In this document: positions 35,059 to 39,935 of the stretch, one piece after another | Layout of the letters: the number at the start of each line of letters is the position of its first letter | How positions within the stretch are numbered: the first letter of the stretch is position 1 | Assembly: GCA_029856045.1 (NCBI GenBank) | Contig: JAHQWG010000016.1 | Location: 1 to 64,000 of the forward strand | Origin: Promethearchaeia archaeon | Lineage (GTDB): Archaea; Asgardarchaeota; Lokiarchaeia; Sigyniarchaeales; SOKP01 | Direction of reading: 5' to 3' | DNA length: 64,000 nt | Made by a program: the position numbers and the translations under genes | The notes under the pieces: model-generated | What the model was told of the DNA's origin: nothing | What the model saw: the letters and a program-made list of their open reading frames with translations, nothing else | Databases searched by the model: none

Positions 35059-35622
35059 TTAACCCGAAATTGAAATTATTTCAGCACTTCTTACAATAAA
35101 ATTTGTATCAATATAGAGTAATAGAGCATGGTCTTGATGATTAAAAACTAAAGGAACAAGTTTTTTAGTTGAATTCTCGATTAAACTATTCTTTACATAT
35201 ATTTTAAGAGTTTTTTTACAATATTTACAAAATGCATCTATAAATCTTCCATTTTTACTTGGCACAATTTTTATAGCTTTCTCTACTACTGAGTTAAAAC
35301 CTTTAAAAAAATCATCGTAAATTGCGTCATAGGAATTTAAGATAGATTCTCCATAGATTTCAATAAATTTATCGGAGATATAATCCAAAATCGCCTCAAT
35401 TAACTGAAATTGAACAGATTTATCGGTAACAATCACAAAAACTATATCTTTTTTTTTGATAAATACAACTTTAGAGTCAGCTTTGTTTATATGATAATAT
35501 CTAGATTCTTGAGGAACATCTTTAGCGAGAGTATATTCAAAAAAAAAAGCTTTTGGTAAATTTTTTTGTTTCCAGGAAAAATAGGTGTTTTCGAAACATT
35601 CAATATTAATAAAATAAATCAA
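35059..35622 (-). CDS. Putative longin-like protein with C-terminal CxxC/HxxH domain
   Basis: IVFVIVTD...ILDYISDKFIEIY...FKGF longin-like pattern; CKYC...HQDH..LYID.NF.VR; start uncertain (may extend to 35652). Confidence 0.5.
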   Translation of the reverse strand: MIYFINIECFENTYFSWKQKNLPKAFFFEYTLAKDVPQESRYYHINKADSKVVFIKKKDIVFVIVTDKSVQFQLIEAILDYISDKFIEIYGESILNSYDAIYDDFFKGFNSVVEKAIKIVPSKNGRFIDAFCKYCKKTLKIYVKNSLIENSTKKLVPLVFNHQDHALLLYIDTNFIVRSAEIISISG

Positions 35623-35727: not shown

Positions 35728-38508
35728 TTATTCTAAAATAAGAACTGGTTTGCCAGGTAGTGCTTGTCCAGCTTTTTTATGTTCAATTTGATCTTCTAAA
35801 TGTATTTCAATGTTACACCCAAAATTATCTTGAAATGTTGGTTTTATTTCATTAAAAAAGTCCATTTCACCTTTTGATGTTAAGACTATTTTTGAATATA
35901 TCCCAAGATTTTGTAAAATATTATTAATAATTTGATTTATTTTTTTCCCAAATTTTTTTAATTCAGCGTCTTGCATAATTATTTTCATAATTTCTCCTTG
36001 ATCTTTAGATTTTTCAATCAATGGTATTAATTTTGAAAATAATTTGTATTTCCATTCGGTTGCAATTACAATTTTAATCAAAGAAATTTTTTGACCCTTT
36101 AAAATTTGTATTATATTTTTTATATCATCTATTGTGTTGTTCATTAAATTCCATTTAAAATCGTTTTCATCTGTTAATAGATTTTTGTTATGGGATGGCC
36201 AAGGACTTTTACTTAAGAAATCTTTATGACCAAGCAGTTCCCATAATTCTTCTGTTATGTGTGGTATAAATGGATGTAAGAGCAGAAGCAATTTTTCTTG
36301 ACATTCTTTATAGAGATGTTCAATAACACCTTTTTTCTTATATTCTTTCAAATTTGGAATGAATTGAACAATTTCATTTATCGTATCACGTAATGCGAGA
36401 TTATTCATGTGCTCTGTAGCTATTTTTATGAGTTTGTTTAATTTATATTCTATAAAAGTATCATTTATATTCCTTTGGTTTCTAATTTTTTCGACAGACT
36501 CTGTAAAAAGTGTCCATAAACCAGAGACAAATTTATATGCAAATCCAACTCCTTGATCAGACCATTCCAATCCTTTCTCTGGACTTGCTCCGAATAATAT
36601 GAAAAATCTAGTTGCATCTGCTCCATATTCATTCATAATTCCAATTGGATCAACGGTATTTCCTAGAGATTTGCTCATCTTAACACTTTTTAGAATATAT
36701 TCAGTTCCACATCGTTTACAAGTATCATCATGCATTTCTGCTTTCATCGCAAAGGTATTACATTTTGGACAATATGGATGTGCTTTATTAATCATACCAT
36801 GTGTTAATAATCGTTGAAAGGGTTCATCATGTGAATGTAACCCAAGATCACGTGCTACTTTTGTAAAAAATCTTGCATAAAGAAGATGCATAATTGCATG
36901 TTCGATTCCGCCAATGTATTGATCGACATTTCCCCAATAATCAACAATATCCTTTCTATATGGTAAATCATTTGTATGAGGATCACAGAATCTAAAGAAA
37001 TACCAAGAACTATCAACAAAAGTATCCATTGTATCAGTCTCACGCCTCCCTGGTTTACCACATTTTGGACATTGGCAATTAATGAAAGATTCAGAAGTTA
37101 TTAAAGGATTTCCTTTTCCAGTAAATTTAACATCTTTTGGTAATTCTAATGGCAAATTCTCATAAGGAACAGGCACAACTCCGCAATCATCGCAATATAT
37201 TATTGGTATTGGGCATCCCCAATATCTTTGACGGGAAATTAGCCAATCCCTTAACTTATAATTAACGGTTGCTTTACCCATCCCTATTTTTTCTAACTTT
37301 TTTGTTATCGAATTAATCGCGGTTCGATTATCCATCCCATCAAATTCTTCCGAATTTACTAGGATGCCATCTGCCACATAAGCTCTTGTCATTTTATCCG
37401 CATTTAATTCATAATCAGGTGGTTGAATAACAACTTTAATCGCGATATTATATTCTTTTGCAAATTCAAAATCACGTTGGTCGTGAGCAGGAACAGCCAT
37501 GACTGCACCTGCCCCGTATTCATAAATGACAAAATTTCCACTATAAATAGGAACTTTTTCTTTTGTCACTGGATTAATCGCATATTTGCCAATAAAAATC
37601 CCTTTTTTATCAACCTCAATATCCGTCCTTTCAAATTTATTCTGCGTCATAACATCAGTGTAAAAAATTTCGAAATCTTTTTCATATTCAGTTCCTTTAA
37701 CCCATTCGCGAACCCAAGGATGTTCTGGAGCAAAAACCATAAAAGTGACTCCATAAAGTGTATCAGCTCTAGTTGTAAATATGTCAATGGTTCTGTCTTC
37801 TCCCACAACTGGGAATTTAATTATCGACCCCTCCGACCTCCCGATCCAATTTCTTTGCATAACTTTAACTTTGTCAGGCCAATCAACATTATTTAAGCCA
37901 TTTAACAATTCTTCAGCATAAGATCTTATTTTTAAAAACCATTGGGTCAAAAATTTTTGTTCTACTTCTGAATTGCAACGCCAACAGAGACCACCTTGAA
38001 CTTGCTCGTTAGCCAACACTGTTACACATTGAGGGCACCAATTAATATAACTATCTTCTCGATAAGCTAGATCTTTTTCAAACATTTTCAGAAAAAACCA
38101 CTGATCCCATTTAAAATAATTTGGATCATGGCTATGAATTTCACGAGTCCAATCATAAGATAATCCTATCCTTTTTTGTTGATTTCTCATGATATCGATA
38201 TTTAAATTGGTCCATTCCTCTGGATTCACTCCCTCGTCAATTGCGGCGTTTTCTGCGGGTAATCCAAAAGAATCATATCCCATAGGATAAAGTATATGGA
38301 ATCCGCACATTCGTTTGTATCTAGTAAATGCATCGCCAACAGTATAATTACGTAGATGGCCTATGTGAAGTTTTCCAGAGGGATAAGGGTACATTTCGAG
38401 TATATAATACTTTTTCTTTTTTGGATCTTTTTGTATTTCGAAGATTTTTGCTTCTTCCCATTTCTTTTGCCATTTCTCTTCTATTTTTTGGGGGTTATAA
38501 TCATTCAT
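35728..38508 (-). CDS. leuS: Leucine--tRNA ligase, bacterial-type core with archaeal-type C-terminal domain
   Basis: MYPYPSGKLHIGH, FGLPAENAAI, FTTRADT editing domain after MQRNWIGRSEG, DWLISRQRYWG, KMSKS. Confidence 0.97.
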   Translation of the reverse strand: MNDYNPQKIEEKWQKKWEEAKIFEIQKDPKKKKYYILEMYPYPSGKLHIGHLRNYTVGDAFTRYKRMCGFHILYPMGYDSFGLPAENAAIDEGVNPEEWTNLNIDIMRNQQKRIGLSYDWTREIHSHDPNYFKWDQWFFLKMFEKDLAYREDSYINWCPQCVTVLANEQVQGGLCWRCNSEVEQKFLTQWFLKIRSYAEELLNGLNNVDWPDKVKVMQRNWIGRSEGSIIKFPVVGEDRTIDIFTTRADTLYGVTFMVFAPEHPWVREWVKGTEYEKDFEIFYTDVMTQNKFERTDIEVDKKGIFIGKYAINPVTKEKVPIYSGNFVIYEYGAGAVMAVPAHDQRDFEFAKEYNIAIKVVIQPPDYELNADKMTRAYVADGILVNSEEFDGMDNRTAINSITKKLEKIGMGKATVNYKLRDWLISRQRYWGCPIPIIYCDDCGVVPVPYENLPLELPKDVKFTGKGNPLITSESFINCQCPKCGKPGRRETDTMDTFVDSSWYFFRFCDPHTNDLPYRKDIVDYWGNVDQYIGGIEHAIMHLLYARFFTKVARDLGLHSHDEPFQRLLTHGMINKAHPYCPKCNTFAMKAEMHDDTCKRCGTEYILKSVKMSKSLGNTVDPIGIMNEYGADATRFFILFGASPEKGLEWSDQGVGFAYKFVSGLWTLFTESVEKIRNQRNINDTFIEYKLNKLIKIATEHMNNLALRDTINEIVQFIPNLKEYKKKGVIEHLYKECQEKLLLLLHPFIPHITEELWELLGHKDFLSKSPWPSHNKNLLTDENDFKWNLMNNTIDDIKNIIQILKGQKISLIKIVIATEWKYKLFSKLIPLIEKSKDQGEIMKIIMQDAELKKFGKKINQIINNILQNLGIYSKIVLTSKGEMDFFNEIKPTFQDNFGCNIEIHLEDQIEHKKAGQALPGKPVLILE

Positions 38509-38632
38509 ATTTCCTTTTATTCCATTCCATTGTTTTTATTAAAATTATCCACATTTTTTCAATATTATGAATTCTTTTTTTCAATGCTTCTTCGAACCTT
38601 TGAGCTTTAATTCTAAAAATATTTTCTGGATA

Positions 38633-38697
38633 TCAAGAGAGAACAAATCCATAAAAGTTATTAAAAGAAAAAAAGACTCAGGTTCATTCTCTCTTGA
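38633..38697 (-). promoter_or_regulatory. Putative attenuator hairpin enclosing a U-tract in the leuS leader
   Basis: TCAAGAGAGAA (38697-38687) is perfectly complementary to TTCTCTCTTGA (38643-38633); T7-C-T4 at 38674-38663 lies in the loop. Confidence 0.65.
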
Positions 38698-38698
38698 A

Positions 38699-38779
38699 TT
38701 AAAGTAATAACAATAATACCACTACTAAGAGTAGTACAAATAACAATATGTTTTGTACTTTTTTCATCAAGAGAGACAT
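38699..38779 (-). CDS. Putative leuS leader peptide MSLLMKKVQNILLFVLLLVVVLLLLL
   Basis: 26 codons with 12 Leu, ending in 5 consecutive Leu; same strand as leuS, 190 nt upstream; below the ORF-track size cutoff. Confidence 0.7.
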   Translation of the reverse strand: MSLLMKKVQNILLFVLLLVVVLLLLL

Positions 38780-38802: not shown

Positions 38803-38810
38803 CTTTTAAA
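38803..38810 (-). promoter_or_regulatory. Candidate TATA box for the leuS leader transcript
   Basis: TTTAAAAG at -31..-24 relative to the leader ATG, compatible with a leaderless start; weak because the genome is AT-rich. Confidence 0.35.
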
Positions 38811-38834
38811 GATTATTATAAGGTCTATAGAAAT

Positions 38835-39935
38835 TTAATTATCAATTCTTTCACGAAGGAGAGTTTTTATTTTTATTGCTCTTTTATATAGGTTTTCAAT
38901 TTTATCGCCAATCTTTTTAAAATTATGCAGTTTATCAGTTAAAGCATAAGCATTTTTAATTATTTTATTTCTAAAAGTTGAATCATGAAGTAACATTTCA
39001 ATTCCACTCAAAAATTCATTATGATGATATGCTTTACAACAAGACTCATTATGAATTAACCAATTAAAGGGTTCAATATCACGGGCTACAATTGGTAATT
39101 TACAAACTGCAGCTTCCATGAGAGGAATCCCTTGATTTTCTACATATGATGGGAATAAAAGAACATCAGCCCCATAATAAGGCTCACAAATATTATCATA
39201 ATATCCTGTAAAAATACAATTTTCCAGCGATGTAGCTTGTTTTACATAGAAATTTTCTTTTATTGGTCCTACCCAAACAAACCAATAATCTGATAAATCT
39301 CTTGCACATTTATAGAATTCATCAACTCCTTTTCTTCTCCAAGTGAAACCTACATTTAGAATGATTTTGGCATCAATTGGAACATAATATCTTTCATTTA
39401 AAAATTTTCTAAATTTTTCTCGATATTCCTTTTTTTCTTTAAATTTTTCAAATTTAACTCCATTGCTAACTGCATATATTGGTGGTTTTTTCTTTAAATT
39501 TAACCTCTTTATTGAATTTTTAGAAAATTCTGATGGAGTTATTATCAAATGTGACACGTTATATAAATATTTAAGATATAATCGAGTTAATTTTGCCCAA
39601 ATTTTCATATTAGGTAAAAATCCACCTTCTAAATCTTCAACTGTTGTATGTGCATGTTGGATAACTGCAGCATTGTGTGTTTTTTTCATCTTATACAATT
39701 GCCATACAGTTAATGGATCAAATGAGGAACTAGATACTACATCTACTTTATTTTTTTGAACCCATTTTGGTGGAGATTTATTCTCACTTGGGACCCATAC
39801 GTTATGACCCTTATTTCTTAATGAATTGATAACATCCCAAGTATTTGTTTCTATACCACCAACAGTTTTAACTTGGGTGAATTTTTTGTATATATGAAAA
39901 TTTTCGATAAAGATAATATTAAGAATTTTTTTCAT
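38835..39935 (-). CDS. GT4-family glycosyltransferase
   Basis: HAHTTVED, RKGVDEF, FPSYVENQGIPLMEA. Confidence 0.9.
   Translation of the reverse strand: MKKILNIIFIENFHIYKKFTQVKTVGGIETNTWDVINSLRNKGHNVWVPSENKSPPKWVQKNKVDVVSSSSFDPLTVWQLYKMKKTHNAAVIQHAHTTVEDLEGGFLPNMKIWAKLTRLYLKYLYNVSHLIITPSEFSKNSIKRLNLKKKPPIYAVSNGVKFEKFKEKKEYREKFRKFLNERYYVPIDAKIILNVGFTWRRKGVDEFYKCARDLSDYWFVWVGPIKENFYVKQATSLENCIFTGYYDNICEPYYGADVLLFPSYVENQGIPLMEAAVCKLPIVARDIEPFNWLIHNESCCKAYHHNEFLSGIEMLLHDSTFRNKIIKNAYALTDKLHNFKKIGDKIENLYKRAIKIKTLLRERIDN

Follow-up and report, generated by a model that had tools for sequence, protein, structure and literature searches.

In this study, we followed up a 26-codon, leucine-rich open reading frame (ORF) located in front of the leucyl-tRNA synthetase gene (leuS) of an Asgard archaeon, and we show that this ORF, a covarying RNA hairpin and a U-rich tract belong to a conserved leader that recurs in front of leuS genes of two kinds in the Promethearchaeota. 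The arrangement resembles the ribosome-based amino acid gauges known only from bacteria, and we hold with high confidence that it is a uORF-dependent cis-regulator of leuS. That it senses leucine through ribosome stalling is plausible (probability of about 0.55) but is inferred from sequence alone, and that it acts by termination at the U-tract is doubtful on present evidence. The window analyzed here comprises 64,000 nucleotides of a Promethearchaeia archaeon (GenBank assembly GCA_029856045.1, contig JAHQWG010000016.1, positions 1 to 64,000), from a genome (hereafter G000) of 3.34 Mb in 55 contigs with 29.4% GC.

The leuS leader and its conservation within the genus

The original prediction described a minus-strand ORF at 38699..38779 that is rich in leucine and lies just before leuS, and this observation is confirmed. 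The ORF has 26 codons plus a stop, with 12 Leu (codons CTC, TTG, TTA, CTA, and CTT, but no CTG), 5 Val, and 1 Ile, and five consecutive Leu codons (codons 22 to 26, 38702..38716) directly precede the TAA stop. Its stop is 190 nt from the ATG of leuS (35728..38508, minus strand, 926 amino acids [aa], identified with Pfam and NCBIfam). A TATA box (TTTAAAA, 38804..38810) lies at −31 to −25 from the uORF ATG within a promoter block (38803..38816) that is invariant in both clades of the genus, a spacing that fits a leaderless uORF. The LeuRS is a chimera by profile, in that the bacterial model TIGR00396 covers residues 4 to 804 with 975 bits, whereas the C-terminal 320 residues match the archaeal LeuRS models (residues 605 to 926); it is the only LeuRS gene of this genome, and no archaeal-type leuS was found in the genus. 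The gene after leuS (35059..35622, minus strand) gives a weak match to a Longin (regulated-SNARE-like) domain (E value of 3e-4, below the Pfam cutoff), which fits an Asgard genome.

Composition alone would not carry the case. Of 19,249 ATG short ORFs of 15 to 45 aa in the whole genome, 18 reach 46% Leu, and among 2,206 intergenic ORFs of at least 15 aa this one is the most Leu-rich, against a background of 9.8% Leu in proteins of this genome; yet a binomial enrichment of 2e-5 is not exceptional over about 31,000 tests, and the scan that raised this ORF looked at very many windows. A genome-wide search for other cognate-rich uORFs, a check that had been set beforehand, yielded only one further cognate pair: the most His-enriched intergenic short ORF (6 His, three in a row; contig C36, 46786 to 46890, equivalent to 2787 to 2891 of the extracted locus L055) lies 132 nt before hisC (TIGR01141; C36, 47023 to 48210), the first gene of a his operon that was found in only 3 of 41 related genomes. 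Its CAT repeats are part of a 7-bp inverted repeat, and in the sister species a 1-nt indel stops the frame before the His run, so that we regard this pair as a coincidence. Further, the three HMGL-like (leuA-like) genes of this genome have no Leu-rich uORF. Such coincidences therefore do occur, but a chance origin of the leuS-linked ORF is close to refuted, because the ORF, its length and its surroundings are conserved far beyond neutral expectation and recur before another leuS type.

Within the genus, the ORF is kept with the same length and frame, and with no indel, in seven lineages of two clades. The first clade includes the genomes G004, G001, and G002 (locus L067/L081) and two metagenome lineages (L034 and L059/L060), with LeuRS 89 to 93% identical, and the second has LeuRS only 75% identical (L064 and L065; L061 is cut inside the leader). 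Between the two clades, four-fold degenerate sites of leuS are saturated (35% identity), whereas the leader, about 330 nt long, stays 72 to 80% identical; taken separately, promoter block, uORF and spacer remain 70 to 80% identical, with 70 to 73% for the spacer. This indicates that the whole leader is under purifying selection. The spacer (38509..38592), in contrast to the uORF, has several indels; it carries a conserved block and GGA motifs before the leuS ATG, in a genome where Shine-Dalgarno-like motifs peak at −15 to −11, and a promoter inside it is not excluded. A second short ORF (38581..38652), which starts in the 3′ arm of the hairpin described below, is not conserved as a coding frame, since its start codon is ATG in only some relatives and a 1-nt indel changes its frame and length in the second clade. 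The upstream neighbor also differs: in G000 it is a GT4/GT1 glycosyltransferase gene (38835..39935, minus strand), found at this place only in this genome and thus an insertion between the leader and the divergent radical-SAM gene, whereas in relatives it is a divergent radical-SAM or acetyltransferase gene. The block therefore travels with leuS. The inserted gene ends 55 nt before the uORF ATG with no T-run in between, and read-through from it would enter the leader.

However, not all features of the ORF are conserved. The five-Leu run is specific to this genome; in relatives, two of these five positions (23 to 25) carry Val, Ser, or Thr, and these codons are the fastest-evolving part among close relatives (0.44 changes per site, against 0.22 at neutral sites), although 10 to 12 of the 26 codons are Leu throughout the genus. 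The rare Leu codon CTC (5% of Leu codons genome-wide) makes up 4 of 10 to 11 Leu codons in the leader ORFs of close relatives (G004, L059, and G001) and is kept at codons 22 and 26 in both clades, but G000 has replaced it at those two positions. By our count on the alignment, differences between the two clades fall 5/5/5 on the three codon positions, so that there is no coding signature in this subfamily alone, and the synonymous excess among close relatives is weak (P of about 0.03 to 0.1).

RNA structure and the wider leader family

The leader contains segments that can pair in mutually exclusive ways. Segment 1 (TCTCTCTTGA, 38767..38776, codons 2 to 4) is complementary to segment 2 (38688..38697), which starts 2 nt after the stop codon, within reach of a ribosome at the terminal Leu codons, and segment 2 is also complementary to a direct repeat of segment 1 in segment 3 (38633..38650). 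Hairpin A, formed by segments 1 and 2, encloses the ORF (−24.8 kcal/mol, z of −3.7), with 95% of cells paired in six sequences and wobble-only changes. Hairpin B pairs 38681..38697 with 38633..38650 (−20.4 kcal/mol, z of −2.95) and holds the U-tract (T7-C-T4, 38663..38674) in its loop, 6 nt after the 5′ arm; segment 3 also forms a small local hairpin (38627..38651). A third helix, C, pairs 38672..38686 with 38593..38608 (segment 5), spans the U-tract, and shows two G-C to G-U to A-U compensatory series between the clades. That helix C and hairpin B both span the U-tract argues for one RNA, although an internal promoter in the spacer remains possible. The z-score for folding of the whole leader was −1.6 and not significant. 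A sigma-70 and terminator scan was uninformative, with no terminator-like site found, and the U-tract lies in the loop of hairpin B and 8 to 13 nt after hairpin A, so there is no bacterial-type terminator; archaeal termination needs only a U-tract (PMC8716108), so that this bacterial criterion may not apply. A search of Rfam, including the Leu_leader and T-box models, gave only noise up to an E value of 10, and a C/D-box small RNA reading was rejected because the box order does not fit and the scores are noise.

A pattern search with segment 3 and a covariance model of the hairpin region (R1) showed that this leader is one member of a family. Among 151 genomes of the order, 24 had a hit, always one per genome, and all 24 lie in the window's own family; two weak hits elsewhere in G000 (C27:493503 and C25:6627) lie inside coding DNA. 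In one genus (g11; 15 of 53 genomes), the strong hits precede a small acidic ORF of about 50 aa (45 to 68 aa; loci L068 to L072 and L074 to L089, for example, L070, 4365 to 4738), which in most loci is followed by fwdA (formylmethanofuran dehydrogenase subunit A; TIGR03121). This small ORF has no Pfam or NCBIfam match and was not found in G000, and the idea that the 52-aa ORF after these leaders is a relic of the LeuRS N terminus was rejected by BLASTP. One weaker hit (genome G082) lies before an archaeal-type leuS, a gene not orthologous to the window's leuS and present in at least four other genera (g2, g3, g11, and g12). Following this lead, R1 found the module directly upstream of archaeal-type leuS, on the same strand, in 26 of 30 g11 loci and in 10 of 12 further loci, that is, 36 of 42; by eye it is present in all 12 of the latter, which cover g2, g3, g12, and g11. 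Genus g11 includes a one-contig genome (G101), whose archaeal-type leuS has the leader. The neighbors of archaeal-type leuS, a PAS protein and a Ras-like GTPase, differ from those of the window's leuS; in situ replacement of archaeal-type by bacterial-type leuS was rejected on this ground, and the difference indicates that the leader class became linked to a LeuRS gene at least twice. The bacterial-type leuS of 27 other genomes, searched with nhmmer and R1, has no such leader; g2 and g11 carry both this chimeric type and an archaeal-type LeuRS, and in genomes with two LeuRS genes it is the archaeal-type one that carries the leader.

The uORFs before archaeal-type leuS have 26 to 31 codons with 6 to 11 Leu, of which 5 to 7 are in the last 8 codons, whereas the other tail residues vary among Ala, Val, Ser, Gln, Arg, Glu, and Asp. 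In 20 aligned uORFs of this subfamily, pairwise diversity at the three codon positions is 0.08/0.12/0.22 for codons 2 to 8 and 0.06/0.06/0.16 for codons 18 to 28, and it is flat for the middle codons, which is a coding signature. Across 58 aligned family members, hairpin B shows double changes at 13 of 14 pairs, none of 500 shuffles reaches the observed score, and the covariation score is 0.288, against at most 0.084 for slid registers; the alignment was fitted to the model, which favors pairing but not double changes. All subfamilies keep a T-rich tract at the place of the U-tract and a TATA box about 34 to 26 nt before the uORF ATG, the spacing of a leaderless mRNA.

These data bear on the alternative that the peptide is an independent small membrane protein or a type I toxin-like peptide whose gene merely sits before leuS. 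In this genus and in the fwdA-linked subfamily, the peptide does have basic residues followed by 16 to 17 hydrophobic residues, and its mRNA start can pair with the region after its stop. However, the hydrophobic stretch is broken by Gln, Arg, Glu, and Asp in the sister leuS leaders, the element is single copy and always codirectional with the next gene, the RNA helices continue beyond the supposed gene end, and the peptide is too short to leave the ribosome tunnel before termination. We therefore consider this alternative very unlikely. A similarly low likelihood applies to a protein-binding operator, in which LeuRS itself, or another RNA-binding protein such as an Sm-like protein on the U-rich loop, would bind hairpin B and feed back on leuS, with the uORF only accessory. 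The strongly covarying hairpin, its conserved U-rich loop and the link to leuS would agree with it, but close paralogues precede genes other than leuS, ARAGORN finds no tRNA-like element, Rfam finds no match, and the uORF shows amino acid-level selection in the archaeal-leuS subfamily.

Leucine sensing as a model for the leader

The original prediction further inferred that the ORF senses charging of tRNA-Leu and thereby controls leuS, and this interpretation is partly supported. Our analysis demonstrates the ORF and its conservation, the promoter spacing, the covariation of the hairpin, the U-tract, and the repeated link to leuS genes of two kinds, whereas translation of the uORF in this subfamily, the sensing of leucine, any response of leuS expression to leucine supply, the use of the U-tract as a regulated terminator and the direction of control are inferred. 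In our best explanation, the ORF is the translated, probably leaderless, leader ORF of a family built in the order of TATA box, a 24- to 31-codon ORF ending in a cluster of Leu (and Val) codons, a stop codon abutting the 5′ arm of the covarying hairpin, a U-tract in the hairpin loop, a spacer, and the gene. A ribosome held on the terminal Leu codons when charged tRNA-Leu is scarce would cover segment 2 and prevent both hairpin A and hairpin B while RNA polymerase is at or just past the U-tract, 24 nt after the stop, whereas a ribosome that terminates and leaves would free it. The fold chosen would then decide how much transcription, or the resulting mRNA, continues past the U-tract into leuS. 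Since archaeal termination needs a U-tract and is helped by aCPSF1/FttA acting on accessible nascent RNA (PMC8716108, PMC7515710, PMC11616081), ribosome occupancy next to the U-tract could set read-through. By analogy with pheST and T-box control, we expect more LeuRS when Leu-tRNA is scarce, but the sequence does not fix the direction, and control of RNA stability or translation is equally possible.

The main rival is a uORF-dependent leader with no amino acid specificity, where translation of the short ORF as such (through ribosome supply or coupling to RNA polymerase) would open or close the hairpins, and the Leu/Val richness would be a by-product of UUA and GUA repeats that pair with AAU/UAC-rich codons near the 5′ end of the ORF. 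By sequence, the window's leader is closest to the g11 leaders that precede the small ORF and fwdA, with no known link to leucine (100 to 135 bits with R1, against 20 to 40 bits for the archaeal-leuS leaders), and those uORFs are as Leu/Val-rich as this one. Other paralogous leaders precede other small ORFs and have Leu-poor uORFs. In two loci (L090, on contig C130 of genome G140, and L096, on contig C235 of genome G076), two leader-plus-small-ORF units stand in tandem about 640 nt apart, and the upstream unit has a Leu-poor 25-codon uORF with the same hairpin and U-tract design and a strong GGAGGTGA ribosome-binding site before its small ORF. Moreover, in the archaeal-leuS subfamily, RNAalifold alone predicts that UUA codons at the uORF end (codons 23 to 26) pair with AAU-rich codons near its start (codons 4 to 7), by eye the same holds for UUA and GUA codons in other subfamilies, and third codon positions are strongly conserved in the window's own subfamily, so that RNA pairing could explain part of the composition. 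On the other hand, this rival gives no reason why the class is linked twice, independently, to LeuRS genes of two types, nor why the archaeal-leuS subfamily keeps Leu while the other tail residues change freely. We thus consider it unlikely, though less so than the other alternatives; the chassis is general, and what is specific to leuS is the Leu-dominated tail.

Relation to known leader systems

Leader-peptide attenuation is a textbook bacterial mechanism that needs ribosomes to follow RNA polymerase closely, and our literature searches found no paper describing it in archaea. A conserved, covarying, leuS-linked leader with a Leu-rich, probably leaderless ORF in Asgard archaea therefore provides a concrete, testable case for whether coupling is used for gene control in this lineage, how archaeal U-tract/FttA termination can be regulated, and how LeuRS levels are set. 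The family (covariance model R1, alignments A3 and A4) also offers a new structured RNA class for annotating Asgard genomes. We speculate, tentatively and at somewhat less than even odds, that Promethearchaeota use ribosome-mediated, amino acid-responsive attenuation, with a family of leaderless leader ORFs with Leu codon clusters gating a covarying hairpin and a U-tract in front of both LeuRS types and a few other genes. This would be a leucine "ribulon" that depends on coupled transcription and translation in the closest prokaryotic relatives of eukaryotes.

The nearest precedents are the classical bacterial attenuators of aminoacyl-tRNA synthetase genes, namely, the Escherichia coli pheST leader and the predicted leuS and trpS attenuators of Streptomyces (PMC1262725). 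As in these, a short ORF rich in the cognate codon lies in the 5′ leader of the synthetase gene, mutually exclusive RNA segments are present, one of them within reach of a ribosome at the end of the ORF, and a U-rich tract follows. Here, however, the host is an archaeon with a TATA promoter, the leader ORF is probably leaderless, the U-tract lies in the loop of the conserved hairpin instead of directly after a hairpin, there is no sequence or Rfam relationship, and members of the same family precede genes unrelated to leucine. Given the lack of an Rfam match and of a hairpin-plus-U-run terminator, we do not assign the element to the bacterial families, although in our model it works like them at the level of design. 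The leaderless polycysteine short ORFs of mycobacteria, which act as Cys-responsive attenuators (bioRxiv 10.1101/834739), share a leaderless short ORF as first cistron, a cluster of one codon type near its end, a stalled ribosome proposed to block an RNA duplex, and several loci of one design. In the present leader, from another domain of life and with a mechanism inferred from sequence alone, the covarying hairpin lies about 120 to 190 nt before the leuS start and does not include it. In archaeal U-tract/aCPSF1 (FttA) termination, a run of 6 to 7 U in the nascent RNA is the signal, such as the one found here 24 nt after the uORF stop, but the terminators described lie at gene ends (PMC8716108, PMC7515710, PMC11616081), and regulated use of one inside a 5′ leader, gated by a ribosome, has not been described in the papers we could search. 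Finally, T-box riboswitches of bacterial aminoacyl-tRNA synthetase genes likewise are synthetase leaders that report on tRNA charging, and the LeuRS core here is of bacterial type; in our model, in the absence of any T-box match, a translated uORF takes the place of the tRNA-binding stem.
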